24,834 nt of DNA from an uncultured virus (IMG/VR IMGVR_UViG_3300032331_003338) (lineage: Duplodnaviria; Heunggongvirae; Uroviricota; Caudoviricetes), in the IMG/VR virus record IMGVR_UViG_3300032331_003338. The stretch is one strand, 5' to 3'. Under the pieces are notes generated by a model. That model ran no database searches. It was not told where the DNA came from and saw only the letters and a list, made by a program, of their open reading frames with translations. Each line of letters begins with the position of its first letter. Within the stretch, counting starts at the first letter, position 1. This document shows positions 2,121 to 17,389 of the stretch, one piece after another. Made by a program: the position numbers and the translations under genes.

Positions 2121-2128
2121 GAGGAACA

Positions 2129-2599: not shown

Positions 2600-2624
2600 C
2601 GCGGACTAACAAGTCTGCGACAAT
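2596..2624 (+). promoter_or_regulatory. Sigma70-type promoter
   Basis: TTGACG-17-GACAAT with extended TG. Confidence 0.6.
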
Positions 2625-2685
2625 GCGTAAAGAGAGTTCATCGTTGGCGCAGCCGACGGCTCTCAGCAACAGGAGGAAACGAACA

Positions 2686-3192: not shown

Positions 3193-3202
3193 ATACGTCG
3201 GG

Positions 3203-3272
3203 TCGGTGGTTCCTCCCACCTTCTCGGCCTAACGCCCCTTCGGTGGTTCCTCCCACCGGAGGGGTTCTCTTT
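3203..3272 (+). terminator. Tandem hairpins with an 18-bp direct repeat, ending in an intrinsic terminator
   Basis: TCGGTGGTTCCTCCCACC at 3203-3220 and 3240-3257; second copy lies within a CCCCT...AGGGG stem followed by TTCTCTTT. Confidence 0.7.
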
Positions 3273-3384
3273 GCCCGCAGCTCTATTCGACCTCCTGGCC
3301 ACGCCCGCATAGTTTAGATTCCTTATCATTACCTTATCCAAATATTACTTGACTAGGTGATACCCCATACCCCATAATGGACTG

Positions 3385-3610
3385 ACTACCGGAGCCGCGG
3401 CTCAATGGTAGAGGTGGAGCGTTAGACGAGAGAGCAGTTGCCCCGACCATATTGGGGGAAAGAGATTCATGCGAGGCGACAGCGCCGCTGCTGAAATGGC
3501 GGGGTTGTAGGAACGGAATACCGGACATCAGGGAAGGCCTCCCTAGTGGCTAGGACTCTCGACCGATCAGGAGGTCTGGTGAGCGACGGCTCGTCAGGCC
3601 TCCTTCTCTA
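3385..3610 (+). ncRNA. Putative structured non-coding RNA 1
   Basis: No credible ORF; possible promoter TTGACT-18-CATAAT (3349-3378); stems with G-U pairs; multi-hairpin junction at 3531-3605. Confidence 0.4.
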
Positions 3611-3637
3611 TGTCGTAGGAGCTTTGAGAATAGGGGC

Positions 3638-3666
3638 TTGACGGCCGGCAAATGTTCGTTTAGGAT
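3638..3666 (+). promoter_or_regulatory. Sigma70-type promoter upstream of the non-coding segment
   Basis: GGGGC-TTGACG-17-TAGGAT. Confidence 0.75.
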
Positions 3667-3671
3667 CATCA

Positions 3672-3910
3672 AACGAGCCGCTCTGGTGCCGCTGTGAAAG
3701 TAGCGGGCTTATGGGGCTGCGGCTGGTTGGTAGTTGTAGACAAACTACCCGCGACGATAAGGACGAGCTGTGGGGGTGCCTAACCGACACCTACGCCGTT
3801 CGCAAGAGGCAGCCGGAAGGTGAAGCCTCTCCTCGCAAGAGGATAAGCGTCAAAGGCAGCGAAATGCTTGGGGGGTCGGCCAGATGTGGTGTCTGATCGG
3901 CTCCCCTTCA
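3672..3910 (+). ncRNA. Putative structured non-coding RNA 2
   Basis: Own promoter, no RBS-led ORF; hairpins CCGCTG-TGAAAG-TAGCGG, GGTAGTT..AACTACC, TCCTC-GCAA-GAGGA; long 3' stem at 3870-3906. Confidence 0.55.
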
Positions 3911-3913
3911 CAC

Positions 3914-3942
3914 TTGACGGCGCGAATCGTTAGGTGTAGTTT
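3914..3942 (+). promoter_or_regulatory. Sigma70-type promoter
   Basis: TTGACG-17-TAGTTT. Confidence 0.7.
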
Positions 3943-3983
3943 AGTGATGTCGGGAGTTCCCGATGGATAGCACAGGAGGAAGT

Positions 3984-4265
3984 ATGGACGAGCAGACGAC
4001 TATCGAACACATTGAGGAGTGTGAGTCCAGCTTGGGCGCACCACACGGCACGCCGAAGCTCCGCACCTACAAGTATGGCTGGAACGGCTACGAGAACGCC
4101 TATGAGGGTTCCGAGTGGCTGTGCGATGATTGCTATGAAGCGATGAGTCAGGTTGATGGAGCCGATGAGGTCGTCGCGTATGTATGCTTTGAGTGCGGTA
4201 AAGTTGCGGTCGGTGAGGCGGCCGCTTTGTGCCGCGAGTGCGAGAAGGAGGTGTTTGGTGAGTAG
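3984..4265 (+). CDS. Zn-finger (multiple CxxC) protein
   Basis: GCACAGGAGGAAGT-ATG; CDDC, CFEC, CREC. Confidence 0.7.
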   Translation: MDEQTTIEHIEECESSLGAPHGTPKLRTYKYGWNGYENAYEGSEWLCDDCYEAMSQVDGADEVVAYVCFECGKVAVGEAAALCRECEKEVFGE

Positions 4266-4608
4266 GCAAGACGCGGCTTTCTTTACGCACACGCACGACG
4301 CAGAGGTTCTGTGGAGGCCAGAGGGCAGCAACCCAAAGGAAGTGCGCGTGTACCGAAATGGTGAAATGAGAATCAACTACACGGAGCCGTCAGGTGAAAA
4401 CGTAGTCCTTCGGTATACAGATGACCTAGACGGAAAGGGACTTGATACCGACGAGAAGCTGCGCGCAGCAGAGGAGTCTGGCCTGATCGAGTGGATAAAT
4501 AACGCTTGGTTTGAGGTTGCGTGGGTTGATAATGAGGACGGAGAGATTGTTGATGGAATAGATGAGGCCATTGAGTATGCCAAGAAACTATTGGAGGAGG
4601 AAGTATGA
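4258..4608 (+). CDS. Hypothetical acidic protein
   Basis: AAGGAGG-6-GTG at 4258, in frame with ORF 4153..4608. Confidence 0.7.
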   Translation: MSRQDAAFFTHTHDAEVLWRPEGSNPKEVRVYRNGEMRINYTEPSGENVVLRYTDDLDGKGLDTDEKLRAAEESGLIEWINNAWFEVAWVDNEDGEIVDGIDEAIEYAKKLLEEEV

Positions 4609-4757
4609 GTAGGAACGCTTGTATCTGGTGCGGAACTGAGGTTGAGGACGACCGGCAGTACGAGTTTGCTATCTGTGGTGAGTGCTATGCTGACGCGGCA
4701 CACGCTTCACAGGCCGAAGTAAGGATTGAGGAGATGAGAGATAATGGCGACATTTAG
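4605..4757 (+). CDS. 50-aa zinc-finger micro-protein (not in ORF track)
   Basis: GGAGGAAGT-ATG; CIWC...CGEC. Confidence 0.7.
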   Translation: MSRNACIWCGTEVEDDRQYEFAICGECYADAAHASQAEVRIEEMRDNGDI

Positions 4758-4971
4758 TTTCTACGAGTTCACGGAGGAGGAGGTCATCGGCTTTGTTCGC
4801 GCCCTAGTGCGTGGCGGGGACTTTGCTATTGGGCTTCCGTCAGACGAGGCCATAGATCGCGCACTCGACATCATTGACGAGCCGCATAAATGGTCGCGTG
4901 AGATGACGGCGTGGCGAGCTTCTGGTTCGCCAGAGGCCTATATCTACCAGCCAGAGGCCTTGACGGACTAG
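4744..4971 (+). CDS. Hypothetical protein
   Basis: Overlaps the previous gene; GAGGAG upstream. Confidence 0.6.
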   Translation: MATFSFYEFTEEEVIGFVRALVRGGDFAIGLPSDEAIDRALDIIDEPHKWSREMTAWRASGSPEAYIYQPEALTD

Positions 4972-5274: not shown

Positions 5275-5483
5275 CTTCGATTTCTGGAAAGAGTGGCCGC
5301 TCGTGGAGTCAGTTCTCAGCTCGTACAAAGGCCGAGTACCTTCGGGAGTCGGCAGCGTGGGAGCGTGAGCAGCGGCGTAGGCTATACATCAAGGGTGCGG
5401 TAGTAGCGGTTGCGTTTGCGGCCTTCGTACTCTTGGTGCTAGGATTCGGCGGCACGACCGATTTCGTGCCAGATATGAGATAG
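5271..5483 (+). CDS. Small single-pass membrane protein
   Basis: ATGA coupling; hydrophobic GAVVAVAFAAFVLLVLGF. Confidence 0.65.
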   Translation: MTSISGKSGRSWSQFSARTKAEYLRESAAWEREQRRRLYIKGAVVAVAFAAFVLLVLGFGGTTDFVPDMR

Positions 5484-5491
5484 GAGGAACT

Positions 5492-5758
5492 ATGCGAGGC
5501 GAGGAACTATACGAACTTAGGGACGCTGGCTATCTGAAAGTCGAGCTGCGCGAAGGCCTGTGGGTCGCCCTGATGAGTGAGGACGGCGTGAACTTCGGCG
5601 GTACGCTCTGGAAGCAGTCGGCCTCTGATGGGTTCCACTATTCCGAGGGCTGTACTGCCGGCTATCCTGTGTTTGGATTCGGTATGACTTCGGAGGAGGC
5701 CGCTCGACAGGTGGCCTTGTATATCGCTATGGAGTCGGGCGCTGAGGCCTTGCTCTAA
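5492..5758 (+). CDS. Hypothetical protein
   Basis: AGGAGGAACT-ATG. Confidence 0.7.
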   Translation: MRGEELYELRDAGYLKVELREGLWVALMSEDGVNFGGTLWKQSASDGFHYSEGCTAGYPVFGFGMTSEEAARQVALYIAMESGAEALL

Positions 5759-5761
5759 CGC

Positions 5762-5790
5762 TTGACGCGCAGAACGTAGTCGGCTATTGT
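5762..5790 (+). promoter_or_regulatory. Sigma70-type promoter
   Basis: TTGACG-17-TATTGT. Confidence 0.7.
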
Positions 5791-5831
5791 TCATGAGTCG
5801 GGACTTCCCGATCTAGCACAAGGAGGAGCAC

Positions 5832-6197
5832 ATGAGCGGGTACGCAGTAAAGGTTGAGTCGGGCAAGGTGTCCGTAGTAGATCGCGGCGAAGGCCTCTCT
5901 GGCCTATACGCTGCGACCGATTGCCAGATGATCGAGATAGCAGCCACCGGAAAGATCGCTGGCGTTCCTGTTGCGATTGTCTGCGACGAGGAAGGCCTCC
6001 TGAAGTCCGAGCCAAAAATGAACCTGACCGCGTGTGATGTTGTCGCAGTAGCAACTGAGAGCGCACCGATGTATCTATTCGGCGGCGGCCTTGCTGGTAC
6101 GGTGTCGATCGTTCACGACGACCAGCTCCGCGGGTTCACCGCTGACGAGCGCGACAAGATCGTCGGCATACTCCAAGATGGCGGCTTCCCGATGTAG
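5832..6197 (+). CDS. DUF3846-like protein
   Basis: LY...DC..IE....IVCDEEGLLK...N..A pattern. Confidence 0.6.
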   Translation: MSGYAVKVESGKVSVVDRGEGLSGLYAATDCQMIEIAATGKIAGVPVAIVCDEEGLLKSEPKMNLTACDVVAVATESAPMYLFGGGLAGTVSIVHDDQLRGFTADERDKIVGILQDGGFPM

Positions 6198-6218
6198 TCG
6201 GGGCTGCTCAATGTCTAC

Positions 6219-6256
6219 GAGGCCGTCGGTGTCTGTGCCACCGGCGGTCTCACTTT
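6219..6256 (+). terminator. Terminator-like hairpin with TCTGTGC loop
   Basis: GAGGCCGTCGGTG-TCTGTGC-CACCGGCGGTCTC. Confidence 0.65.
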
Positions 6257-6378
6257 ATCCGCTCATCATTAGGACATCATTATCAGGCCGCTATTATCAG
6301 ACCCCCTACCATAGCCCCCCCCCATACCCCACACCCCATCGCTACCGGTAGGCCGTGCGCTAGGTCGAAACTAGGGGC

Positions 6379-6406
6379 TTGACTTCCGACGCAGACCTGC
6401 TACCTT
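6379..6406 (+). promoter_or_regulatory. Sigma70-type promoter
   Basis: GGGGC-TTGACT-16-TACCTT with extended TG. Confidence 0.65.
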
Positions 6407-6453
6407 CTATGAGTTGGCACTTGCTAACAGCACAGGCACAGGAGGAGGAACAG

Positions 6454-6885
6454 ATGAAAGACCTGACGACACCAGCGCAGAAGTGGCTGCGGGAGTTTCT
6501 CGGAACACAGGCCGTAGGGACTTGCCCTACTTGCCGACAGGCTCTACCAGAAGGCTCGTGCTTTCGGGCGTTCGTTCGCTACGGCGACGGCGATGACCTT
6601 GTGGCCTACACCAAGACTCGCGGTGAGGCTCTGGCCGTCCTGATCGGTTGGCGCGATGACGAGTGTGGCGATTCGTTCTGGGCTGATCGAGCGGAGACCT
6701 GGGAGAGCCTGAGCGTCGCGCAAGCGGTTGCTTTGGAGCACGCACCGGCCGCTCTGGTCGTTGCTGCCAATGCTGACGATAAGGCCTACGATGAACTCTT
6801 GGCCGCAGTCGAGTATGACTTCATCGGGACGCCAATGGTCGGCGCTGTCTGGGTAGACGATCTTACGGCCTACTCGGGCAAGTAG
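6454..6885 (+). CDS. Hypothetical protein with CPTC motif
   Basis: GCACAGGAGGAGG RBS, ATG 6454. Confidence 0.7.
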   Translation: MKDLTTPAQKWLREFLGTQAVGTCPTCRQALPEGSCFRAFVRYGDGDDLVAYTKTRGEALAVLIGWRDDECGDSFWADRAETWESLSVAQAVALEHAPAALVVAANADDKAYDELLAAVEYDFIGTPMVGAVWVDDLTAYSGK

Positions 6886-6902
6886 TCGTCTCCGTTTTCT
6901 AC

Positions 6903-6943
6903 GAGGCCACTCTCCATCTGTGCGGAGGGTGGCCTCTCTCTTT
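6903..6943 (+). terminator. Intrinsic terminator with ATCTGTGC loop
   Basis: GAGGCCACTCTCC-ATCTGTGC-GGAGGGTGGCCTC-TCTCTTT. Confidence 0.75.
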
Positions 6944-7070
6944 GCCTCCAGCTTCACGCGGTCATCATTAGGCCGTCATTATGCTCCCGCTATTACGAGA
7001 CCCCATACCCCATTTCCCCAGACCCCCAGACCCCAGCGTTGCGCGCTCCGCAACACTCGCCACAGGGGGC

Positions 7071-7099
7071 TTGACTTCTGGGCTTGGTGGCTCTACCTT
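7071..7099 (+). promoter_or_regulatory. Sigma70-type promoter
   Basis: GGGGC-TTGACT-17-TACCTT. Confidence 0.7.
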
Positions 7100-7149
7100 G
7101 TAAGAGTCAAGCGGCTTTGCTCCGCAGGACGAGCACAGAGGAGGACACG

Positions 7150-7611
7150 ATGAAGGGTATGACCTACGAGAAGGCACGCGAGGCGTGCCAGAAGGCCGGC
7201 GGTATGTTCGCCGTGTGGACGGCGTGGTCTGCGCCAACCACTCCAAAGCAGTTCGATACTCGCAAGAAGGACGCTGCTAGCCGTGAGGCCACGCACCGCG
7301 CCATTGGTCGAGTCCAGACTTCGGGCGAGCAGATCGTAGACGACAAGGGGCGCGTATCGTTCCTGTTCCGCGCTGCTGGCCAGATCAACCGCGACATACA
7401 CCCAGAGGGCGTGTACCTGACGAAGGCTGGCGATCCGATGGTGGACATCGTGATCTCCGCTCCTACGGAGTACGGCTACACGACGGCCTGTAAGTATTCG
7501 GGAGTGGTCGGCTCTGCCTGTGAGCACCGCCGTCCGTTCCACGCGCACCGCACCATCAACCTCACACGGCTCGTGTCGTGGCTCATCGCAGGAGAGGAGC
7601 AGGTCGGGTAG
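7150..7611 (+). CDS. Hypothetical protein, paralog A of 11980..12432
   Basis: GCACAGAGGAGG RBS; shares long motif blocks with paralog B. Confidence 0.85.
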   Translation: MKGMTYEKAREACQKAGGMFAVWTAWSAPTTPKQFDTRKKDAASREATHRAIGRVQTSGEQIVDDKGRVSFLFRAAGQINRDIHPEGVYLTKAGDPMVDIVISAPTEYGYTTACKYSGVVGSACEHRRPFHAHRTINLTRLVSWLIAGEEQVG

Positions 7612-7631
7612 GTTCGGCCTCTCCACTTCGA

Positions 7632-7672
7632 GCGCACCTCGTCGGGCTTCGGCTCGGCGGGGTGTGTTTTTT
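7632..7672 (+). terminator. Intrinsic terminator (cUUCGg loop)
   Basis: GC-rich stem, CTTCGG loop, T6 tract. Confidence 0.85.
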
Positions 7673-7899
7673 GTAAAAGCTTTACGCGGTCATCATTAGC
7701 GCGCTATTAGATCGACCCCCTACCCCGACCCCCTGCCCCCACTCCCCCCTGCTATTGGTTCGGCTTCCTGTTCTGTCGAGCTGCTATTCATCAGGTCATC
7801 ATTAGGCGGCTATTACTTGACCCCCCATACAATCCCCACTCCCCCCTTACCCCATTGTTGGCTCGGTCGAGTGCTACCGCTCTGGCTCGTCCTGAGGGC

Positions 7900-7928
7900 T
7901 TGACGCATTGACCACTGCCGGTAATACT
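7900..7928 (+). promoter_or_regulatory. Sigma70-type promoter
   Basis: GGGC-TTGACG-17-AATACT. Confidence 0.55.
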
Positions 7929-7976
7929 TGACTGGTCGGGTGGCTATGATCCGCTCGGCTAGCACAGGAGGTCTCT

Positions 7977-8366
7977 ATGTTTAGGTTCTATGTATTCGTG
8001 AGGCGCGTGGTCGATGGGATCGAGGACGCCGTAGGCGACACGCTGACCGCTGCCGGCCCTGACTGGGCGTACGACAAGACTGAGGCTGTCGCTACCGACG
8101 GCGGCTATCCTGAGCCGATGGCTCACTCGGTCGCTCGTGGTATGACCCAGGCTGCGTATGCGCTGCTCGGTGGTCTGGACTTCTTTGTCCAAGAGTACGA
8201 CGCGGAGGATGTCGTGGCAGGGTCGCTGACCCCAGAGGATAAGGAGATGGCGGCGGCTATCGCTATGGGCCTCCTCCCTTCTGACGGCTCGGTAGCCTTC
8301 GTCTCTGGTCTGGTCAATCGAGCAGACGCCAAGCCCTTCTGGTTCGTGGTCGCCGTTCACGACTAG
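7977..8366 (+). CDS. Hypothetical protein
   Basis: GCACAGGAGG RBS; followed by a terminator. Confidence 0.75.
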   Translation: MFRFYVFVRRVVDGIEDAVGDTLTAAGPDWAYDKTEAVATDGGYPEPMAHSVARGMTQAAYALLGGLDFFVQEYDAEDVVAGSLTPEDKEMAAAIAMGLLPSDGSVAFVSGLVNRADAKPFWFVVAVHD

Positions 8367-8388
8367 CCGTACCGGTTGCGGTCATCAG

Positions 8389-8425
8389 AGCCGCCCTCAC
8401 CCTTCGGGGTGGGGGTGGTTTTTTT
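8389..8425 (+). terminator. Intrinsic terminator (cUUCGg loop)
   Basis: GCCGCCCTCACC-CTTCGG-GGTGGGGGTGGT then T tract. Confidence 0.85.
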
Positions 8426-8537
8426 CTTGGGCTATTATCAGGTGGCTATTACGACACCCCTACGACCCCATACCCCACTCCCCCTTACCCCTGCTGCTGT
8501 GGCTCGGCTGTTCCAGCGTCCAGCTCGACTGCTGCTA

Positions 8538-8567
8538 TTGACTTGACCGCGCCCGGCCGTATAGACT
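8538..8567 (+). promoter_or_regulatory. Sigma70-type promoter
   Basis: TTGACT-18-TAGACT. Confidence 0.65.
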
Positions 8568-8618
8568 CATGGAAGTCGAGGGAGTAGGCACAGACCCCTC
8601 TCGGCACAGGAGGTCAAG

Positions 8619-8933
8619 ATGACCGAGCAACAGAAGGCGAGCCTCTGGCTCGTTGAGGTGATTTGGGAGGGCGAGAATCGCCGCTCTTGGTACAACAACC
8701 AGACCGACGCTGACGCGGCGGTGATTGCGCTGGCTTCGGAGTTGGCGGCGTACAATGCCGACACCGCCGAGGACGCATGCGAGTTTCTGCTGGACGACGA
8801 CCGCTCGGCGTGGGTTGATTGCCAAGAGGTCAGGACTTCTGGGGTTTGCCCTCAGTGCGACGCGATGGCTGGGTGGTCTGGCGACTACTGCGAGCCGTGC
8901 GGCTACCAGTTCGGGAATCAACTGAACGACTAA
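8619..8933 (+). CDS. Hypothetical protein with C-terminal zinc ribbon
   Basis: GCACAGGAGG RBS; CPQC...CEPCG. Confidence 0.75.
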   Translation: MTEQQKASLWLVEVIWEGENRRSWYNNQTDADAAVIALASELAAYNADTAEDACEFLLDDDRSAWVDCQEVRTSGVCPQCDAMAGWSGDYCEPCGYQFGNQLND

Positions 8934-8954
8934 CGCGGCCGGGCGAAGGCAACA

Positions 8955-8985
8955 GGAAGCCGTCCCCTTCGGGGGGCGGTTTTTT
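8955..8985 (+). terminator. Intrinsic terminator (cUUCGg loop)
   Basis: GCCGTCCC-CTTCGG-GGGGCGGT then T tract. Confidence 0.85.
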
Positions 8986-9224
8986 GTTAGTCCTATTAGG
9001 TGGAATCATTACCCCTTGACCCCATTACCCCGCACCCCCCTTCACCCCATCATTTCGGTCGGGTTCCGCTACGGCCGGTCGGAGTCAATAGTCGCAGCTC
9101 ATCATTAGCAGTCATCATCATCAGTCATTATCATCAGGCTATTAGACAACCCCTCACCCCAGATTTGGATTTCCCCTTACCCCATCTGGTCGTTGCGTCT
9201 GGTGCGCGATCTGCTGGGTGGGGC

Positions 9225-9253
9225 TTGACGTTGCCCGCACTTCGAACTAGTCT
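9225..9253 (+). promoter_or_regulatory. Sigma70-type promoter
   Basis: GGGGC-TTGACG-17-TAGTCT. Confidence 0.75.
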
Positions 9254-9300
9254 GGTGAGGTCGCAGGTTGGCACAGACCCGAAGCGACACAGGAGGTCAA

Positions 9301-9795
9301 ATGTTCTCAGAAACGAACCTAGAACGGCTCGTTGAGGTACGGGCAGCGATCAAGGCGACGATGGACTCCCTCACCGAGAAGGAGTTCGCCACAGCAGCAG
9401 AGGGCAACACAGACGCCGGGGGCTCTGGTCATCTTGTCGCCGTCCCTGCTGCGTTCTGGAACGACCACACCAGCCGAGACCTTGACGCGGTGTCGGTCGA
9501 GGTGCGGTCATCAAGCGCGGAGTGGGGACTCTATGATGACGGCTCCTATGTCGTCCTGACGATGACTGACGACTCGCTGGCTGAGTTGATGTCTGACTCG
9601 GCGCACTACTCCTCGTCGTTTGATGAGGAGGACTACGGCTCACTCATGGAGTCGGCACGCCGTACCTTCCTCGCGCTCTTGATCCAGTCGGAGGCGGCGC
9701 GTAGCCTGTTGGACTCGCGCACTTCCTACGACAACCTGCGCTGGGCGCTGGGGTTGGAGCGAACGGGTTCCGCCATCATCACGGGTGCGGCATGA
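9301..9795 (+). CDS. Hypothetical protein
   Basis: ACACAGGAGG RBS, ATG 9301. Confidence 0.75.
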   Translation: MFSETNLERLVEVRAAIKATMDSLTEKEFATAAEGNTDAGGSGHLVAVPAAFWNDHTSRDLDAVSVEVRSSSAEWGLYDDGSYVVLTMTDDSLAELMSDSAHYSSSFDEEDYGSLMESARRTFLALLIQSEAARSLLDSRTSYDNLRWALGLERTGSAIITGAA

Positions 9796-10025
9796 CTGCC
9801 GCTGACCGCGCTTCGATGTGCGCCGATTGCGAGCAGGTGCTAGGCGACTCGGCATGGTACGCCGACAACAACGGCGGACTCGGGCTGCTGATGTATTGCG
9901 ACGGCTGCGAGGAGCGAAGGGCTGAACGCTATGGTTGCGCTCTCATCATCGCGGAGGGTTGCGGTTGCGTTCCGAGTGGCGCTGACTGCGCCTGTGGTTG
10001 CGGAGGCTCTGGCTTGCTTCGTTGA
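9792..10025 (+). CDS. Cys-rich small protein
   Basis: ATGA coupling; CADC, CDGC, CGC..CACGC. Confidence 0.65.
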   Translation: MTAADRASMCADCEQVLGDSAWYADNNGGLGLLMYCDGCEERRAERYGCALIIAEGCGCVPSGADCACGCGGSGLLR

Positions 10026-10044
10026 CCGCACTTCGACCTAAGGC

Positions 10045-10080
10045 TCGCCCTCACTCTTTCGGGAGTGGGGGCGATTCTTT
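10045..10080 (+). terminator. Intrinsic terminator
   Basis: TCGCCCTCACTC-TTTCGG-GAGTGGGGGCGA-TTCTTT. Confidence 0.8.
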
Positions 10081-10414
10081 ACCCCGGGGTTTAGGTAGGG
10101 CCATCATCAGGCAACGCCTACCCCGACCCCCTACCCCATTCGTCAGGCTTGTTTATCAGGTCGTTCATCAGGGGTGTGCTGATACCCCCTCACCCCAGTT
10201 CGTCGCTCTCCGTCGTTCCTACGGGGTCGTTTTTCTGGCGCGCAGCTGCTAACCCCGGGGTTCACGCTCACTCAGGAATGATCGAGCCACAGTCATCAGT
10301 CGTCATTCATCAGTCATCATTCATGACCTACTCCATACCCCTATCCCCATTTCCCCTTACCCCGTGCGCTCGGACTGCTAGGTCGATGTACGGGCAGCAG
10401 CTCGCAACAGCACC

Positions 10415-10443
10415 TTGACTTCTGGTGCGGCCTACTTTACTCT
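10415..10443 (+). promoter_or_regulatory. Sigma70-type promoter
   Basis: TTGACT-17-TACTCT. Confidence 0.7.
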
Positions 10444-10490
10444 CTAAGAGTCGGTGGCTGGCACAGACCCGATCCGACATGGAGGTACAG

Positions 10491-10571
10491 ATGGAAATGG
10501 TAAAGGACTCACTAGCGATGGCGACGTTCCTATTCGGGATGCTGCTGCTCCTCATCTGGGGTGGCTTCTAA
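10491..10571 (+). CDS. 26-aa hydrophobic micro-protein (not in ORF track)
   Basis: GGAGG-5-ATG; MEMVKDSLAMATFLFGMLLLLIWGGF; TAATG overlap with next gene. Confidence 0.6.
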   Translation: MEMVKDSLAMATFLFGMLLLLIWGGF

Positions 10572-10774
10572 TGTACGGCCGCTACGAGTGCAGCAACCAG
10601 AGAACCATCAAGGACGAAGCCGGCTTCTCGGTCTATTCTGGCCAGTGCATCAACGAAACAGAGAGGGTCTATGCGTACTACGAGTACGACGGATCTGATG
10701 GCGTGAAGCCACTCTGTGATCCTTGTGCGCTAGAACTGATGGCTGAGGGCGAGCGACTCGTTCCTGCTAACTAG
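10571..10774 (+). CDS. Small Cys-containing hypothetical protein
   Basis: ATG in TAATG overlap, in frame with ORF 10454..10774; CDPC. Confidence 0.65.
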   Translation: MYGRYECSNQRTIKDEAGFSVYSGQCINETERVYAYYEYDGSDGVKPLCDPCALELMAEGERLVPAN

Positions 10775-10802
10775 CCCACTCCTGCCGCAGCTGCGGCGCT
10801 AC

Positions 10803-10843
10803 GACCCCCTCTACCAACTGTGCGGTAGGGGGGGTCTTTCTTT
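10803..10843 (+). terminator. Intrinsic terminator with AACTGTGC loop
   Basis: GACCCCCTCTACC-AACTGTGC-GGTAGGGGGGGTC-TTTCTTT. Confidence 0.8.
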
Positions 10844-10984
10844 GTCGGCCTCATTATTGTTAGGTCAGTCATTACTCATTAGGTGATCCCCTATACCCCT
10901 CGTCCCCTTACCCCGACTGCTAGGGCTAGTGCTGATGGGGGCTGTCTAGCGGCGAGCTTTCGCGTTGCGCCTGGTGCGTAGTGC

Positions 10985-11013
10985 TTGCGCTTTCCTGCTG
11001 ATGTGTTTAGACT
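10985..11013 (+). promoter_or_regulatory. Sigma70-type promoter
   Basis: TTGCGC-17-TAGACT; leader hairpin CTATCAGCG..CGCTGATAG follows. Confidence 0.6.
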
Positions 11014-11058
11014 CTAACTATCAGCGGCAATGCTTCGCTGATAGCACAGGAGGGAACG

Positions 11059-11574
11059 ATGAACGGAACGAGCGAAACCGGCGTACGGGCAGCAGTCGCA
11101 CGAGCCGAGGCGTTGGCTCAGTATCCAGAGAACCCAACGGCGGTGATGATCCGACCCGTTGAGAGCCTACACGGGCAGGTGTTCGCAGAGCCGACGAGCA
11201 TTATGCTCTCGGTCTTTCTTGCGCCTCGCGTTGGGATCGTATTGGAGCAGGGCGACCTCTGGCGGCAGCCCGTCAAGGTTGAGAGCCGAGTCGGCAATGG
11301 TGGCACCTTCACCTATACGGCGGTGCTGATCGGTAAGGCGGCACCCCAGAACGAGGCGATCCTCTGGCAGGGTGGCAACGCCCCGATGATGGGGTGGCTA
11401 CCCCTTGATGTAGCCGAGTGGGGCGAGGATCACGCTATCGCGTGGTGGATCGCGTCCTGCTACGACGCTGCTAGTGGGGACGCCTATGCGCTCCACCGTC
11501 AGGCAGTCCGCAACATTACGGCACAGGCGCGTGCCGCCTACGAGACCCAGAACGGAGAACCCGCTCCCTTCTGA
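11059..11574 (+). CDS. Hypothetical protein
   Basis: GCACAGGAGG RBS; terminator downstream. Confidence 0.75.
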   Translation: MNGTSETGVRAAVARAEALAQYPENPTAVMIRPVESLHGQVFAEPTSIMLSVFLAPRVGIVLEQGDLWRQPVKVESRVGNGGTFTYTAVLIGKAAPQNEAILWQGGNAPMMGWLPLDVAEWGEDHAIAWWIASCYDAASGDAYALHRQAVRNITAQARAAYETQNGEPAPF

Positions 11575-11597
11575 TCGTCGCCGGAGTCAGGGCAACG

Positions 11598-11630
11598 GAG
11601 CCGATCCCTTCGGGGGTCGGCTCTTTTGTT
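11598..11630 (+). terminator. Intrinsic terminator (cUUCGg loop)
   Basis: GAGCCGATCC-CTTCGG-GGGTCGGCTC-TTTT. Confidence 0.85.
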
Positions 11631-11979
11631 AGGTCATCATCAGTTCATCATCAGGAGCCAGTCGTTCCCCTTACCCCTTACCCCTAGCCGTTGGTCGCTC
11701 CCATCGAGCCTCGGTCAATGCGCGGCGAGTCCTCCCGATGTGGTCAGCGCCGGAGCGGGGTCAATAGATTCACCTAGTAGCTATCATCGGGCAACCTATT
11801 AGGTCAGTCATCAGTATCAGTTATCAGGCGCACCCCTTACCCCCCCCTTACCCCGCACGCATAGGGCGAGTCCGGCGCAGGGGCAACCCGCACCGCCTAC
11901 CCCTTGCGCTGCCCTGTGTTGTGGTAGTCTTAGGGTGTCGGCAGGAGATACCAGCCGACTAGCACAGAGGAGGCACAGG

Positions 11980-12432
11980 ATGAAGGCAGGGATGACCTTC
12001 GCAGCCGCTAGGGCGGCAGCAGCAAAGAGCGGCGGGATGTTCGTCTCGCTTACTGGGTGGAGCGCGCCGACCTCGGAGAAAGTCCGGGAGAAGCGACGCG
12101 AAGCGGCAGCAGGGCGAGCCGCCGAACACCGCGCCATCGGGCGCGTGAAGGTGGAAGCCGAAGCCGAGAACGGCGTGGTGCTGTTCCGCGTAGCGGGTCA
12201 AGTGAACCGCGACGAACACCCTGAGGGCGTGTACCTCAACAAGAAGGGCGAGCCTTGCGTTGGTATCGTCATCGGAGCGCCGACCGAGTACGGCTACACA
12301 ACCGCGTGCCCATACGCAGGGAAGGAAGGGAGCGCATGCGAAATGCGCCGACCCTTCCACGCGCACCGCACCATCAACCTCACGCGCTTGGTGGCGTGGG
12401 TGATTGCGGGGGAGGAGCAGCCGCTCGGCTGA
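11980..12432 (+). CDS. Hypothetical protein, paralog B of 7150..7611
   Basis: GCACAGAGGAGG RBS; upstream extended -10 TG-G-TAGTCT at 11922-11930. Confidence 0.85.
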   Translation: MKAGMTFAAARAAAAKSGGMFVSLTGWSAPTSEKVREKRREAAAGRAAEHRAIGRVKVEAEAENGVVLFRVAGQVNRDEHPEGVYLNKKGEPCVGIVIGAPTEYGYTTACPYAGKEGSACEMRRPFHAHRTINLTRLVAWVIAGEEQPLG

Positions 12433-12448
12433 ACCGCGCCAGAGTTCT

Positions 12449-12489
12449 GAGGAGCCTCCGCCCTAGTGGCGGGGGCTTCTCTCTTTTCT
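12449..12489 (+). terminator. Intrinsic terminator
   Basis: GAGGAGCCTCCGCC..GGCGGGGGCTTCTC followed by TCTTTT. Confidence 0.75.
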
Positions 12490-12715
12490 GAGCTGGACGA
12501 GTGGCATACCAGAGGTTGCCCACCCATCGATTTTGCTGGCCAGTCATGCCCCCCTGCTATGCCCCAACCCCTCATAATCCCCCGTTGCCCCCACCCCGGT
12601 ATGCGTGCGCTACGTACGCACCAACATTGCACCACTCCGTAGCCTTTCAACCCCCTTCGTCCCAATAAAAAAGCCTAGGCACAAGGCCCAGGCGCTAATT
12701 TTTTTTTACAGAAAA

Positions 12716-13114
12716 TTATCTACAGGCGAGCGAGATCCTTCGGCATGCCCTGCACTCTCTCCGGCCCCGTGGAGTCCGGTAGGTGTTCTCGTCCGTCCAC
12801 TCATGCTTCCTTCTGCAGTGTGTGATACGTCCAGTAGCTGCAAGACCACGGCGGATATTGACCGTGCGCGTCACAGGCTCCAGGTGTATCACATTGACGC
12901 ACTTACGGACCCTACAGAGGTGGTCAATCTCCAGGCCCTTGGGGATAGGCCCGACCTCAAAGGTATACGCCCACCTGTGTGCACGGAATCGCTTCCCTTC
13001 GTGCATGAATCCACCGTATCCGTCTGGGTCAAGAGTACCGGTCCATTCATGGCAGCCCGTGAGGTCATTCACATACACATGTTTTCGGAAACGTATCGCC
13101 GATTCTAAATGCAT
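12716..13114 (-). CDS. HNH endonuclease (HNH_3-like) with C-terminal Zn-binding domain
   Basis: AHRWAY..GPIPKGLEIDHLCRVRKCVN..HLE; THC..KHE..ENTY..RECRAC. Confidence 0.9.
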   Translation of the reverse strand: MHLESAIRFRKHVYVNDLTGCHEWTGTLDPDGYGGFMHEGKRFRAHRWAYTFEVGPIPKGLEIDHLCRVRKCVNVIHLEPVTRTVNIRRGLAATGRITHCRRKHEWTDENTYRTPRGRRECRACRRISLACR

Positions 13115-13229
13115 ATCTACGATGTGTACACGGAATGCACGTTTATCTGGGGCCCGGCCGCGGCGCTAGACCCCCCCAATATGCCCCTAGGAGCCACGGA
13201 GAGCGACGCAATATGGGGGGCTACTGTCA

Positions 13230-13541
13230 TTACGCCCCGATACGTCGAATCATGTCCTCTGCCGTGATAAATCCATTGAAGGATTTTGGCGAGGAGGTTG
13301 CCCCATTGGTGTAGATAACACAGGGGACGCTCTTGATACCGTACTCTTGAACAAGGCGTGGTTGCTCGTCAACGTTGACCTTAATAATATTAATGTTAGG
13401 ACGAATCACCTTGAGCTTTTCCAGCTCTACATTGATGGCGACGCACGGTCGGCACCATGGAGCCCAGAAATCAACAATGGTTGGTCCCTTTGCCATCTCT
13501 TGCGTGAGGGTTGCTGTCGTCATTTCAATTACTTGTGTCAT
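13230..13541 (-). CDS. trxA: Thioredoxin
   Basis: DFWAPWCRPC active site, KVNVDE, IKSVP; start ATG 13541 after AAGGAG. Confidence 0.9.
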   Translation of the reverse strand: MTQVIEMTTATLTQEMAKGPTIVDFWAPWCRPCVAINVELEKLKVIRPNINIIKVNVDEQPRLVQEYGIKSVPCVIYTNGATSSPKSFNGFITAEDMIRRIGA

Positions 13542-13676
13542 GCGGGTCTCCTTAGGGATGGCAAGAGGGGGCTGGATCGCTCCAACCCCCTCAGGATTGA
13601 TTGGTGGTTCCTCAACCCGACAGAGACAAGAATCTTTTAAAAACTGTGACATTTCGGAATGAGGCCGTTTATCCTA

Positions 13677-13898
13677 TCAATTAACGTTGCGGGATGCAAT
13701 ACCACGACGAGAGCGCAACGATGTTATATCGTCCACCGGATCACCAATTTTCTCCGCAATCTTCGCCATCGTGTTAACAAGTTCGGAAATCACTGGCAAA
13801 ACCTTTCGCAGTAGCTTTTCACGGTCCACACCGGAATCCATCGTCTGTAGCTTCTGTAGATCTTCTGCAATCTCCTGCAAATCATAATTCTTTGGCAT
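13677..13898 (-). CDS. Hypothetical protein
   Basis: Coupled to the ssb stop; 73 aa, helical. Confidence 0.65.
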   Translation of the reverse strand: MPKNYDLQEIAEDLQKLQTMDSGVDREKLLRKVLPVISELVNTMAKIAEKIGDPVDDITSLRSRRGIASRNVN

Positions 13899-14290
13899 TA
13901 GAACGGAAGCTCTTCAAGCGACTGCTGCATATCTGCACGAGAGGAGCTTGCCTGCACCTCTGAATCACCCTGCTTCTTCGAGCGGCTCAGCACCTGAATG
14001 TACTTTGCTGTGATGGAGATTTCGGTATGCTCCACGTCGTTCTTATCGCTCCACGAGCTGATTTCTGGTGTGCCTTCAATCCAGATAAGGTCACCCTTCT
14101 GGACAATCTTATCGGCTAGCTCGGCTCGTCCGTCCCAACACGTGACCGGATACCACGTCGACTTCTCTTCACCATTTGCATCTTTTCCGCCATGAACGGC
14201 GACATTGAAGTTTGCTACTGGTCGGCCCTTCTGCGTTGCGCGAACAACTGGGCGAGCACCTACATATCCTATCAACTGTACCTTAATCAT
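13898..14290 (-). CDS. ssb: Single-stranded DNA-binding protein
   Basis: OB-fold pattern (LIGYVGARP, F.VAV, W, KGD.I.IEG), acidic C-terminal ELPF. Confidence 0.93.
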   Translation of the reverse strand: MIKVQLIGYVGARPVVRATQKGRPVANFNVAVHGGKDANGEEKSTWYPVTCWDGRAELADKIVQKGDLIWIEGTPEISSWSDKNDVEHTEISITAKYIQVLSRSKKQGDSEVQASSSRADMQQSLEELPF

Positions 14291-14657
14291 CTTCTACTAC
14301 CTCACTAATTCTAAGTACGAGTTTTTCTTCGTCGCACTTCTTCTTCAGGGCCCACACACGCGGCATGAACCGTGCATCATTAACTCCGATACCCAACGCA
14401 ATCGCGTCAAGTGTCAGTTTTAGAATGTTGTCTGCATCGATGCCACGCTTCACGTAGATCCACACATCAACGACGAGCATTGTATCACGACCGCACTCCC
14501 ATTGTTGCTCCGCCTTTGCGGCTGAAGCGATAACGGAAACGATCTTCTTCCACTGCTTGGCATCTCGTGTCATGTAGATATACGATTTTCGTGCGCGATA
14601 CGCAGCATTCCAGCTTGGCGGACGACCGTGAATCGTCAGCTCAAGCGCATCGGCCAC
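14283..14657 (-). CDS. rusA: RusA-like Holliday junction resolvase
   Basis: PPSWN..Y; DADNILKLTLDAI...NDA catalytic pattern. Confidence 0.85.
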   Translation of the reverse strand: MADALELTIHGRPPSWNAAYRARKSYIYMTRDAKQWKKIVSVIASAAKAEQQWECGRDTMLVVDVWIYVKRGIDADNILKLTLDAIALGIGVNDARFMPRVWALKKKCDEEKLVLRISEVVEDD

Positions 14658-15353
14658 TTATTTAGCCGACTTTCGCAATCCTGGACGTAAATCTTTCCCC
14701 GAAACCTCAACAACAGTGCACGTTTCCAGCAACCTGGAGACCGTCGCGCCGTATCCTAGGTCGTACAACTCGTTGACTGACCTATTTGATGTGACAATCG
14801 TTGGGAGCATGGCCGAATACCGGCTCTCAACGAGCACATAGAGGCGTTCAGTCGCCCAATCGGTAGCTTTCTCCTTGCCAAAATCGTCAAGGACTACTAG
14901 CGGAGCCCTTTTGCAGCTGTACTGAAAGTCATCTTGGGCCTCAGCATCATCAAATTTGAATGATGTGCGGATAGCGTCGAGAAAAATCGGTACATTGAAG
15001 AACTTTGCCCCTGCTAGGCCGCCCTGAATACGCTGATTCAGCGCAGCTGCGGCTAAATAGGTCTTCCCAGTGCCGGGAGTTCCCAGCAAAAAGAACCCCT
15101 GGTCCAGTAGTGGCTTGTCGGCCCACTCAAGAACGACTTTTCCAGCGCGTGATTCCCGAATATCAGGAAGCAACGACGCAAGCGAGGCGTTCTGGTAGCG
15201 AATCGGTACGCCCGACTGATTAATTCTCTGGTAGGCGACCTCTGGGGTCGGCACCGTTGAGACTCCCTTGACTTGGCCATTGGACATGATCGTCACAAAG
15301 TCCAAATCGGGGATGATTGACGAAACTTTCTCGAACTTACTACTTTTCGACAT
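14658..15353 (-). CDS. DnaC/IstB-like AAA+ helicase loader
   Basis: Walker A GTPGTGKT, Walker B VLDDFGKE, RY...PTIVTSN, SRL; exact start uncertain. Confidence 0.88.
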   Translation of the reverse strand: MSKSSKFEKVSSIIPDLDFVTIMSNGQVKGVSTVPTPEVAYQRINQSGVPIRYQNASLASLLPDIRESRAGKVVLEWADKPLLDQGFFLLGTPGTGKTYLAAAALNQRIQGGLAGAKFFNVPIFLDAIRTSFKFDDAEAQDDFQYSCKRAPLVVLDDFGKEKATDWATERLYVLVESRYSAMLPTIVTSNRSVNELYDLGYGATVSRLLETCTVVEVSGKDLRPGLRKSAK

Positions 15354-15642
15354 ACTGATCGTAGTCCTCCTTACGGCTGCTAACGTCATCTGACCACTTC
15401 CTTGTCATTGACAGCTTCTTCACATACGCAAACGGATCGCCGCTAACATCGCGGATCGCCGCTTCGCAAATTGCCGACATCAGTGCAGGGATTCCACCCG
15501 GAAATGATGCCATTAACTGCGCAATGCGCCCATAATCACTTCGCTTCATCTCTTTTCCTGTGACCTCCGTGAAGAAGTCACCGATCTTTCCTTGTCTATT
15601 GCTTGAGTGCTCAATTTCTACGCGCCACTGCGCTAGTGTCAT
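15340..15642 (-). CDS. DnaD-like replication protein (putative)
   Basis: ATG 15642 overlaps the upstream stop; AI.EAA...PFAYVKKL...KW resembles the DnaD YxxxILxxW motif; adjacent to DnaC. Confidence 0.5.
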   Translation of the reverse strand: MTLAQWRVEIEHSSNRQGKIGDFFTEVTGKEMKRSDYGRIAQLMASFPGGIPALMSAICEAAIRDVSGDPFAYVKKLSMTRKWSDDVSSRKEDYDQYVEK

Positions 15643-17128: not shown

Positions 17129-17143
17129 TACTAACTCCTTCTC

Positions 17144-17389
17144 TTACTTATGTCCGAAAAGCTCGGACTCACTTAACCCCAGGTATTCTGCCAACCGCTT
17201 CCGCATCTCTGCGGTCATCGGAGCATGGCCATACTGCACCTGGTTCAGATAGCCATATGATACACCAAGGTGCATAGCGACCCAACGTCGCTTCACCCCA
17301 GACTCCTTAATTAAACGCCATACCTTGGCGTTCTCTTCTCGCTGCTGATCCCGCAGCTCTTTATTAGCGATACCGCTCTGCTTACTCAA
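17144..17389 (-). CDS. XRE/Cro-type HTH regulator
   Basis: WVAMHLGVSYGYLNQV..G...LAEYLG....LF. Confidence 0.8.
   Translation of the reverse strand: MSKQSGIANKELRDQQREENAKVWRLIKESGVKRRWVAMHLGVSYGYLNQVQYGHAPMTAEMRKRLAEYLGLSESELFGHK

Follow-up and report, generated by a model that had tools for sequence, protein, structure and literature searches.

An oriented C-run repeat as a candidate joint module between early-gene cassettes in an uncultured freshwater phage

Introduction

The window analysed here is the whole 24,834-nucleotide stretch of IMG/VR record IMGVR_UViG_3300032331_003338, and it is phage DNA. One block of small genes in the window is punctuated by a repeat that reads on the plus strand as short triplets followed by runs of C, and on the minus strand as G tracts and tandem stop codons. 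The question is what such a strand-asymmetric element does. A sequence-only reading described the repeat and listed several candidate functions, including G-quadruplexes, Rho-loading insulators, protein-binding sites and antisense minigenes. These are weighed below against the architecture, conservation and composition of the element.

Copy number, strand and composition

The motif itself was confirmed, with its C-run arrays, minus-strand stops and placement all reproduced. A pattern scan of the window for CCCC-N2-5-CCCC-N2-5-CCCC returned 27 matches spanning 6318–12597, all on the plus strand (27/27), and the enrichment over shuffled sequence is clear (0.06 ± 0.28 expected, maximum 2 among 100 dinucleotide shuffles). 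Counted on the plus strand, there are 14 composite copies, in which (TCA/TTA/CTA)n triplets are followed by two to six C4 runs; the earlier description had the orientation right, with about 13 copies of three to five runs. The quoted CCCCTTACCCCTTACCCC lies exactly at 11667–11684, and the minus strand of 6968–6979 reads ATGACGGCCTAA, also as quoted. The statement that 12700–24834 holds no copy is nearly correct, save for a single two-run cluster at 13171–13187 that has no other part of the motif. The copies are as follows.

6253–6337, plus strand: element 1, four C runs at 6302–6337, after a hairpin (read by eye) behind gene A; TCATCATTAGG / TCATTATCAGG / CTATTATCAGA stand before the C runs (repeat families D2 and D3)
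6952–7034, plus strand: element 2, five C runs at 7001–7034, 16 nt past terminator stem 6903–6936
7680–7749, plus strand: element 3, five C runs at 7716–7749, 17 nt past terminator stem 7646–7663
7786–7853, plus strand: element 4, four C runs at 7821–7853, second unit in the spacer of element 3
8426–8491, plus strand: element 5, five C runs at 8457–8491, 4 nt past terminator 8387–8422
8989–9048, plus strand: element 6, five C runs at 9012–9048, behind terminator 8958–8985
9096–9183, plus strand: element 7, four C runs at 9150–9183, second unit, with long (TCA)n-type repeats
10099–10137, plus strand: element 8, three C runs at 10121–10137, behind terminator 10045–10074; flanks rearranged in the nearest relative
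10154–10196, plus strand: element 9, a weak unit, two C runs at 10185–10196, then a small terminator at 10208–10236
10291–10363, plus strand: element 10, four C runs at 10338–10363, left side of a 551-bp gain/loss joint
10850–10914, plus strand: element 11, C runs at 10888–10914, inside a movable cassette
11627–11684, plus strand: element 12, three C runs at 11667–11684, 3 nt past terminator 11597–11624
11780–11854, plus strand: element 13, three C runs at 11833–11854 including one C8, second unit
12536–12665, plus strand: element 14, six C runs at 12549–12597, no TCA repeats, an extra C-rich tract; ends the plus-strand block ahead of a two-way terminator at 12668–12708
3318–3373, plus strand: partial outlying copy, TTATCATTA..., then TTGACT, CCCCATACCCC and CATAAT, with its C runs in the spacer of a predicted promoter (10/12 consensus positions)

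Together the 14 elements comprise 935 nt, with 42% C, 13% G and a YC dimer density of 0.32 (0.14 in the window). Runs of at least three in-frame TCA/TTA/CTA triplets, equivalent to tandem minus-strand stops, number 18 on the plus strand and 1 on the minus strand (1.06 ± 1.0 expected from shuffles), and 12 of the 18 fall within element spacers. The elements contain 115 stops on the minus strand and 19 on the plus strand. Shuffling the bases of each element (n = 500) gave 50.0 ± 5.5 minus-strand stops, with a maximum of 67, and in 11 of the 14 elements each of the three minus-strand frames contains stops.

Architecture of the joints

The block is a series of small orphan genes, every one of which has a sigma-70-like promoter, a leader hairpin, a Shine-Dalgarno site and a terminator of its own. 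A scan of 5800–13000 found 19 terminator-like sites (3.8 ± 1.9 expected), which in the block resolve to nine distinct plus-strand places, and each called terminator of the block has an element behind it. The element starts 3–25 nt past the stem at seven of these nine places, and 55 and 65 nt past it at the remaining two. A terminator hairpin precedes ten of the 14 elements, counting the one read by eye before element 1; the other four are second units. The cassette promoters are listed below.

6379–6406, plus strand: example of a cassette promoter, TTGACT, 16 nt, TACCTT
7071–7099, 7900–7928, 8538–8567, 9225–9253, 10415–10443 and 10985–11013, plus strand: other cassette promoters

The -35 box lies 36–51 nt past the end of the preceding unit at five of six located promoters, and 70 nt past it at the sixth, a placement that would also fit an upstream promoter element. 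The motif very probably forms the central module of a composite joint that fills the spacers between the early-gene cassettes, each self-contained, of this uncultured freshwater phage. Within a joint the order is intrinsic terminator, (TCA/TTA/CTA)n, (CCCC-N-N-A)n heptads, sigma-70-like promoter, leader hairpin, GCACAGGAGG and small orphan gene. The sequence-only reading, partly right about function, had missed this composite setting and the movement of whole cassettes by recombination at the element.

Conservation in related phages

In contigs of related lake phages the element marks the equivalent block, and it is always the coding strand that carries it. The 85.7-kb complete record G002 has 26 three-run matches on the minus strand within 5405–12133 and 1 on the plus strand, and minus- and plus-strand counts are 28/0 in G003, 28/0 in G001, 0/62 in G005 and 40/0 in G006. 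When arrays in 25 related records were oriented by their cassette genes, 293 followed the coding strand and 45 were opposed to it; the 45 include G-rich terminator stems. The module is restricted to the early-gene block, where its orientation is always that of the coding strand, and conservation is higher in its C runs than in its loops. Between G002 and G003, identity is 97.9% at C-run positions (5/238 changed), 97.1% in the upstream G-free part, 93.3% in other intergenic DNA and 88.8% in loops (14/125 changed). None of the six substitutions in the upstream G-free part is to G. The coding strands of G002, G003 and G005 carry G-free runs of 50–80 nt, whereas no C-free run of at least 30 nt was found in G002 or G003. 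Some of the G-free runs are CT-rich and have no C4 runs, which points to avoidance of G rather than to C4 geometry. The upstream repeats of the window lineage contain AGG and are therefore not G-free.

Array geometry is loose, as close relatives differ by single units. The gap fraction between G002 and G003 is 12.5–13% in arrays and 1.9% in other intergenic DNA, and run X3 differs from the window by deletions of 10, 7 and 6 nt at 6317, 7729 and 7841. Arrays hold two to eight heptads, and the count differs even between near-identical genomes. The heptad loop is 3 nt long and usually ends in A. In lineage L041/L043/L059, alignment gave 33 distinct units with fixed spacing and variable intervening sequence (T6-7 C, 6–7 nt, CTATTA, 12–14 nt, (A)TT, C5-7 ATA C5-6), and here the ATA is almost invariant. 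A profile of these 33 units matched the window at 8413–8476 (E 0.0012, the best match, at element 5) and 6283–6330 (E 0.019), as well as G002 (E 8.8e-5), all on the plus strand; the control stretches, from lambda and a Limnohabitans phage, gave no match.

Cassette gain, loss and reordering

At the joints, entire cassettes have been gained or lost and their order has changed. A 551-bp cassette is missing from the nearest relative (G001), and one contig of a separate, independent metagenome run (X5) also lacks it.

10364–10914, plus strand: movable cassette, with promoter 10415–10443, ORFs 10491–10571 and 10571–10774, terminator 10803–10836 and element 11

The joint runs from 10351 to 10903, skipping 551 positions, with 13 shared letters that lie within the common C-run repeat. 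Cassette order and copy number vary across seven relatives: the order is A B C D E F G H C in the window, A B C H E F C in G002, A C B F C D E H C in L043 and C A B C E D F C in G005. Recombination at the composite joint is likely. Low-complexity direct-repeat arrays can pair in many registers, and so could serve as crossover points for cassette shuffling.

Possible functions of the module

Might recombination be the whole purpose? The repeats would then be selected mainly or only as joints, where register-free microhomology allows cassettes to be excised, inserted and reordered, or would be slippage-prone selfish repeats, with no role in transcription. The 551-bp joint, the shuffled cassettes and the changing unit numbers speak for this, as do the phage-encoded PD-(D/E)XK exonuclease and SSB, and every copy is a direct repeat, as deletion and insertion (not inversion) require. 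Recombination is indifferent to strand, however, and explains neither the constant match of C-rich and coding strand across all records, nor the avoidance of G, nor the C-rich tract at the end of the block, which has no cassette after it. Identity between units is also short (at most ~14–16 nt), and homology as long or longer is available in the promoters, leaders and terminators of the joints, which makes this account rather improbable. A different view starts from the regular heptads, the near-invariant ATA and the spacing of CTATTA, which look like sequence-specific recognition. The T run, CTATTA and CCCC(C)ATACCCC(C) boxes might be bound, on DNA or on the non-template strand, by a phage or host protein that works directionally as a roadblock or regulator, in the manner of stoperators in cluster A mycobacteriophages, or the boxes might be a promoter for a phage-modified polymerase. 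The fixed-spacing units, the profile matches and the slower change of C runs than of loops agree with this, the box spacing resembles that of an UP element, -35 and -10, and in the outlying copy (3349–3378) the C runs fall within a predicted promoter. The variable heptad number nevertheless fits poorly with a fixed protein footprint or promoter geometry. In addition, six of the 14 window units have no downstream promoter or gene, the last array faces only a terminator, and the boxes match the sigma-70 consensus poorly. Sigma-70 region 2 was not found in G002 or G003; T7-type polymerase gave no match in G002, G003 or any control genome, hence this result is empty. Protein recognition is a doubtful but live alternative.

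The two remaining proposals concern the minus strand. A G-quadruplex on this (template) strand, or a plus-strand i-motif, might block polymerases, replication or injection. At least four C4 runs with short loops occur in 10 of the 14 window arrays, and G4Hunter windows at or below -1.5 coincided with 13 of the 14 elements, with two windows at or above +1.5. The property is not family-wide, though: at least four tracts are present in only 114 of 293 arrays in the 25 related records and in none of 58 in lineage L041/L042/L043/L059, which nonetheless keeps the element. Close relatives tolerate the loss of units, and neither the TCA-type repeats upstream nor the G-free CT tracts have any potential to form a quadruplex, leaving this proposal very unlikely. 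The elements might instead act on antisense RNA entering from the converging block, with Shine-Dalgarno-like G runs and three-frame tandem stops that abort translation or form start-stop minigenes. The stop excess is indeed above composition, and the TCAT-TCA-type repeats of relatives give TGA in all three frames when reverse complemented. Yet stops and starts are expected, since any C-free strand is rich in both, and, read by eye, the distance between the last G run and the first ATG follows no regular pattern. Lineage L043 has a single double stop per unit, the terminator at 12668–12708 already protects the block from converging transcripts, and fourteen copies would be superfluous for such guarding; this is the most improbable of the proposals.

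The Rho-loading insulator suggested by the sequence-only reading fits best. The elements are the block's most C-rich, G-poor and unstructured sense RNA. Predicted folding energies are -0.04 to -0.14 kcal/mol per nt in 13 of the 14 elements (-0.27 in element 9), with a block mean of -0.29 ± 0.10, and 70-nt windows above -0.12 all lie on elements, save a few in C-rich tracts beside elements 7 and 14. All eight plus-strand C>G bubbles in the window with a maximum of at least 25% lie on element spacers (102–335 nt, areas 1728–4955), by a criterion calibrated with E. coli Rho on E. coli and Salmonella DNA, where such bubbles are common. The strongest (12511–12806, area 4955) is at element 14, where the plus-strand block meets the converging minus-strand block, and in other lineages the bubbles likewise lie on spacers. 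To our knowledge, cyanobacteria lack Rho; the Synechococcus control gave no match in the Rho search. Nadiras 2018 (PMC6144790) reports that the tested templates with a bubble >78 bp or an area >700 all elicited Rho termination in vitro; the eight bubbles here lie above both values.

Under the Rho-loading explanation, the module would act on polymerases that have run past the terminator. The RNA made beyond it would be C-rich, G-poor and nearly unstructured, with few start codons and no Shine-Dalgarno site by eye, which is the composition of a rut site. Rho could then load at the module and free the polymerase before the next promoter or the converging gene block. Back-up termination would thus fit the composition, and Rho loading as the selected function is proposed tentatively, at distinctly less than even chances. 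The minus-strand G tracts and part of the stop density follow from sense-strand composition. The rest of the stop excess stems from the repeated TCA-type triplets; with stops at more than twice the compositional expectation, the excess is not accounted for by Rho loading. The regularity of heptads and boxes likewise goes beyond what a rut site needs.

Comparison with known systems

The joint module is new, and its nearest known counterpart is the promoter-early stem-loop (PeSL) cassettes of T4-type myoviruses. Going by the PeSL descriptions, both systems flank orphan early genes with composite intergenic joints made of a terminator and a sigma-70-like promoter. They share an AT-rich stretch ahead of the promoter and poly-G/poly-C tracts in stems, and in each of them cassettes are deleted, inserted and reordered among close relatives through recombination from joint to joint (Arbiol et al. 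2010, PMC2839356; Comeau et al. 2014, PMC4122927). The joints here are much longer, and those descriptions mention no strand-specific, G-poor (YYA)n + (CCCCNNA)n module, inside which the mapped crossover falls. The phage is also unrelated, as no near DNA match was found and its portal is ~25% identical to those of Bacillus SPO1-like phages. As a pointer to the host, the sole genome match is weak: a 1070-bp contig in a Phycisphaerales MAG bin (portal identity 46%).

Like the rut sites of lambda tR1 (rutA and rutB; 34% C and 5% G by the NC_001416 annotation), the elements are C-rich, G-poor, unstructured and untranslated in sense RNA, with a composition at least as skewed. Known rut sites have neither consensus nor periodicity, whereas the elements are regular heptad arrays with conserved boxes, directly behind an intrinsic terminator and in 14 copies.

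A stoperator is a single 13-bp site to which the immunity repressor binds, and such sites are distributed genome-wide. In the cited accounts they share with the elements an asymmetric form, a transcription-oriented placement at many intergenic sites and a presumed role in stopping elongation (PMC9283540, PMC6550527). The arrays here differ in being variable in length and limited to one early block.

The module probably halts stray transcription. The best explanation in its entirety, a composite joint whose arrays would load Rho on read-through transcripts and also provide crossover points between early-gene cassettes, falls a little short of even chances.

One-stranded C-run arrays behind early terminators

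The C-run motif described in the sequence-only reading is real: 14 plus-strand arrays, each with two to six runs of at least four C, lie between 6302 and 12597. Matches to the three-run pattern (CCCCN{2,5}CCCCN{2,5}CCCC) number 27, all on the plus strand and all within 6318-12597, compared with 0.06 ± 0.28 in shuffles. Triplet repeats stand ahead of each array (e.g., TCATCATTAGG, CTATTA, TTATCAGG), and their TCA, TTA and CTA triplets are TGA, TAA and TAG on the minus strand. The tandem minus-strand stops reported in that reading also held up, given that runs of at least three in-frame TCA/TTA/CTA triplets occur 18 times on the plus strand and once on the minus strand, with about one expected; 12 of the 18 fall within element spacers. 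The 14 elements (935 nt) contain 115 minus-strand stops versus 50.0 ± 5.5 predicted from their own base composition, and stops are present in all three minus-strand frames in 11 of them. Start codons in the same DNA number 15 on the plus strand versus 67 on the minus strand.

The placement of the elements follows the terminators. At seven of the nine called plus-strand terminator places the element begins 3-25 nt past the stem, and at the other two it begins 55 and 65 nt past it. A tenth element comes after a hairpin recognised by eye, and the remaining four are second units of the same spacer. Two further features lie outside the block of early genes:

3318-3373, plus strand: partial copy of the element, inside a predicted promoter
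13171-13187: bare two-run cluster

Full-text searches of one literature library with motif strings and topics turned up no account of a phage element of this kind, and the motif-string matches listed were unrelated (e.g., mitochondrial promoters).

The cassette block

The block itself (5832-12432) is a row of small plus-strand genes, A, B, C, D, E, F/F2, G1/G2, H and C2. None of the nine cassette proteins tested belongs to a Pfam family, and one of ten tested matches PHROGs, in a family of unknown function. The layout of the cassettes is constant, with a promoter, a leader hairpin, GCACAGGAGG, the ORF and a GC-rich hairpin followed by a T tract. Promoters in the spacers are sigma-70-like (TTGACN/TTGCGC, 16-18 nt, TAnnnT), and a scan called 19 terminator-like sites where 3.8 ± 1.9 were expected. 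All cassette leaders (e.g., 8584-8617, 9260-9300, 10450-10479) comprise a short hairpin such as GTCG...CGAC and then (G)CACAGGAGG directly before the start codon; they fall within repeat families D14, D16 and D19, and a GCACAG box is also seen.

Several other features of this region were observed. The genes at 7150-7611 and 11980-12432 are paralogous orphans (families D4 and D8; 73-84% DNA identity over parts), of which relatives have two to three copies at differing block positions. An isolated small hairpin with a T tract (CTCCGTCGTTCCTACGGGGTCGTTTTT; 10197-10236) lies in a spacer with no gene ahead of it. It is kept in two relatives, G001 and G002, and may represent either a small RNA or what remains of a cassette since lost. 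A hydrophobic 26-residue ORF (MEMVKDSLAMATFLFGMLLLLIWGGF; 10491-10571) within the movable 551-bp cassette has a stop that overlaps the next start (TAATG). The stretch 3349-3960 contains a predicted promoter (TTGACT, 18 nt, CATAAT) that agrees with the consensus at 10 of 12 positions. The ~330-600 nt after it have no convincing ORF and may encode an unknown non-coding RNA; Rfam gave no match in the window, this stretch included, at E up to 0.1.

The motif GGGCAAC/T is strand-biased in six relatives (9-13 copies on the coding strand versus 2-5 on the other), with counts of 7 versus 9 in the window and 3 versus 1 in the contig L039. It often stands directly ahead of a terminator stem (reverse strand of L033, the record also called G002, at 6576, 8032 and 8966; window, 11590) and therefore possibly belongs to a terminator module that has been duplicated. 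A likeness of CGGTAGCG to the RfaH ops site was considered and rejected, as neither CCGGTAG nor CGGTAGCG is strand-biased.

Relatives of the phage and forms of the element

The gene content of the window is that of a phage, comprising a portal (19444-21600, minus strand), a C5 cytosine methyltransferase, a PD-(D/E)XK exonuclease, a DnaC-like loader, an SSB, an HNH endonuclease, a prohead protease fusion and the beginning of a major head protein. No near DNA match was found among 50,697 isolated phage records. The best portal matches are Bacillus SPO1-like phages at ~25% identity, and protein searches with the portal, protease fusion and exonuclease led to distant phages only. Sequencing runs containing the window DNA are lake and freshwater metagenomes, and two labelled RNA-Seq are probably DNA. 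A scan of a genome collection gave one match, a 1070-bp MAG contig with a related portal fragment, which was not taken as a host call. In the complete relative G002 and in G003, sigma-70 region 2 was not found; a search of both for a T7-type polymerase also gave no match and is uninformative, because the control genomes gave none either.

The C-terminal part of the 718-aa portal (~residues 465-595) matches HAD-type hydrolase and polynucleotide-kinase families, an unusual fusion. The 605-aa protein encoded at 22377-24194 joins a prohead protease region to an Hva1_TUDOR-like domain, which scores 23.2 bits, under Pfam's own cut-off of 24.1 bits. This domain is the sole part of the protein common to Roseobacter phage CRP-811 and Limnohabitans phage DC31, and the C-run pattern is absent from DC31.

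About 25 related contigs were collected by scanning viral contigs with one 18-mer and then with cassette protein C. The motif is conserved in these relatives, on one strand and, in whole records, in one block of ~7-9 kb.

Three-run matches per strand in relatives of the window
G001 (nearest relative, ~97% identical to the window): 28 vs. 0
G002 (85.7 kb, complete): 26 on minus, within 5405-12133; 1 on plus
G003: 28 vs. 0
G005: 0 vs. 62
G006: 40 vs. 0

In 25 records oriented by their cassette genes, the coding strand carries 293 arrays of at least two runs and the opposite strand 45, which include G-rich terminator stems. Loops of 3 nt account for 430 of 668, with ATA commonest, then ACA, TTA and AGA; the heptad is therefore approximately N-N-A-CCCC. 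The form in G002, G003 and G005 has an upstream part of (TCATTCA/TCATCA)n and is G-free over 50-80 nt. The contigs L041, L043 and L059 have a sharply defined unit with two C runs only (T6-7 C, 6-7 nt, CTATTA, 12-14 nt, (A)TT, C5-7 ATA C5-6). A profile of this unit matches the window on the plus strand only, at 8413-8476 (E 0.0012) and 6283-6330 (E 0.019), and has no match in two control stretches; the forms are thus related. The reverse strand of L033 also has G-free tracts with no C4 run in the same spacers, and one of these tracts is at the block end (6833-6880, 50 nt, CT-rich; 10629-10704, 76 nt, also containing A). Tandem arrays of CCCCTTA-type heptads were seen in the unrelated viral contigs L004, L007, L008, L010, L025 and L032, some facing an inverted GGGGTAA array; these were rejected as the same element, being plain tandem repeats that lack the terminator, TCA and promoter layout.

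Conservation was measured in the alignment of G002 with G003, which are 89% identical overall. Identity is 97.9% at C-run positions and 97.1% in the upstream G-free part, compared with 93.3% in other intergenic DNA, 88.8% in the loops and 84.4% in coding DNA, and the six changes in the G-free part never introduce a G. Gaps occupy 12.5-13% of arrays versus 1.9% elsewhere in the spacers. In a lake run, a relative of 93-95% identity has 10-, 7- and 6-nt deletions within the arrays at 6317, 7729 and 7841. These identities and in-array deletions show that the C runs and the lack of G are kept and that unit number is free.

Recombination at the joints

Cassettes are gained, lost and reordered at the joints, where terminator, triplet repeats, C-run heptads, promoter and leader hairpin meet. 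One complete cassette with its own element (10364-10914) is missing from G001, whose joint falls within the shared CCCCTTACCCCG. An independent freshwater run contains a contig with the same joint, passing from 10351 to 10903 with 551 bp skipped and 13 shared letters. Further rearrangements adjoin the array at 10085-10150, and cassette order and copy number vary across seven relatives.

Cassette order in the window and its relatives
Window: A B C D E F G H C
G002, G003: A B C H E F C
G005, L051: C A B C E D F C
L043: A C B F C D E H C
L063: A C B E C F2 F

The same indel and reordering behaviour is described for T4-type PeSL joints in excerpts from two papers (PMC2839356; PMC4122927). The likeness covers the pairing, in intergenic DNA, of a sigma-70-like early promoter with a terminator stem-loop, the flanking of orphan, non-core genes of a variable region, and the cassette indels and reordering that joint recombination produces between relatives. 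However, the window phage falls outside the T4-type group, and the excerpted PeSL description does not mention a G-poor triplet-plus-heptad module. The window joint is thus an analogue of PeSL and not a member, given the lack of a near DNA match and a portal nearest to SPO1-like phages.

Rho loading and alternative roles

The tie to the coding strand, the position behind terminators and the loose geometry indicate that the probable target of the element is either read-through RNA or the polymerase during transcription. Its composition is 42% C and 13% G, and YC density is 0.32, compared with 0.14 for the window; the annotated lambda rutA and rutB have 34% C and 5% G. All eight plus-strand window bubbles (C excess over G) with a maximum of at least 25% sit on element spacers, with lengths of 102-335 nt and areas of 1728-4955. 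In the excerpted text of Nadiras et al. (2018; PMC6144790), every tested template with a bubble longer than 78 bp or an area above 700 elicited Rho termination in vitro; the measure, computed here on the non-template strand with a 78-nt window, was calibrated on enterobacteria. Three other lineages, the two-run lineage included, give the same bubble result. For 13 of the 14 elements, predicted RNA folding gives -0.04 to -0.14 kcal/mol per nt, compared with -0.29 ± 0.10 on average over the block, and the least-structured 70-nt windows of the block are all on elements, apart from a few in adjoining C-rich tracts. A G-free sense strand holds no ATG, GTG, TTG or Shine-Dalgarno site, so its RNA would be ribosome-free.

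From the bubbles, YC richness, low folding, presumably ribosome-free RNA and the fit of strand and position, we infer that the module may be a Rho-loading back-up terminator and insulator. Of the roles proposed in the sequence-only reading, the C-rich Rho-loading insulator is the best fit. The element shares the composition of rut sites and is far more regular than those known. Composition is favoured over C4 geometry as the relevant property, because some CT-rich, G-free tracts of G002 have no C4 run. The plus-strand block meets a converging minus-strand block at the strongest tract (12511-12806), the place where a back-up stop would be most useful. Rho is encoded in the MAG with the related portal fragment (E 5.8e-33), and the link of that MAG to the phage is one 1070-bp binned contig.

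A sequence-specific protein site or phage-specific promoter would account for the fixed boxes of one lineage and the narrow distance to the -35 box (36-51 nt at all but one of the six promoters located). However, unit number is variable and some units have nothing downstream, and we consider this role doubtful, if worth keeping in mind. Stoperators are defined by one asymmetric site of fixed length and a repressor; here fixed boxes occur in one lineage and arrays of variable length elsewhere. That the joints recombine is clear, but recombination as the only role explains neither the strand rule nor the avoidance of G, and is unlikely.

Folding of the DNA into a G-quadruplex or i-motif had been suggested by the tracts, and 10 of the 14 window arrays indeed have at least four with short loops. 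This does not extend to the family, in which 114 of 293 arrays across the 25 related records, and none of 58 in one lineage, have that number, making such a structure a very improbable basis for the element. A role as antisense stop or minigene directly accounts for the excess of minus-strand stops, as no other reading does. Nevertheless, it would require antisense transcription across the two-way terminator at 12668-12708 and the elements have no regular spacing, while the proposed start-stop minigenes with an antisense Shine-Dalgarno site failed on the inconsistent distance, as read by eye, from G run to ATG. This role has hardly any likelihood.

Implications

The observation is solid, and its mechanism is partly resolved. 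A tentative proposal, which we put forward as speculation, is that evolvable arrays of heptad C runs and YYA triplets behind each early terminator form a purpose-built modular insulator, read as single strand by Rho (a 'super-rut') or by a dedicated poly-C-type factor, that makes each cassette autonomous in its transcription. The same arrays would be a register-free universal joint for swapping cassettes from phage to phage, integron-like without an integrase. The regularity of the heptads may hint at an unknown single-strand binding factor. If the back-up terminator reading is right, the module would be a compact natural part that couples an intrinsic terminator to a strong factor-loading tract, and one-stranded C-run arrays after terminators would be a signature of host-takeover gene blocks in metagenomic phage contigs. 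It would also provide a testable model of how many strong early phage promoters are kept from mutual interference, and would extend PeSL-type shuffling, so far T4-type, to an unrelated lineage of lake phages with a different joint.
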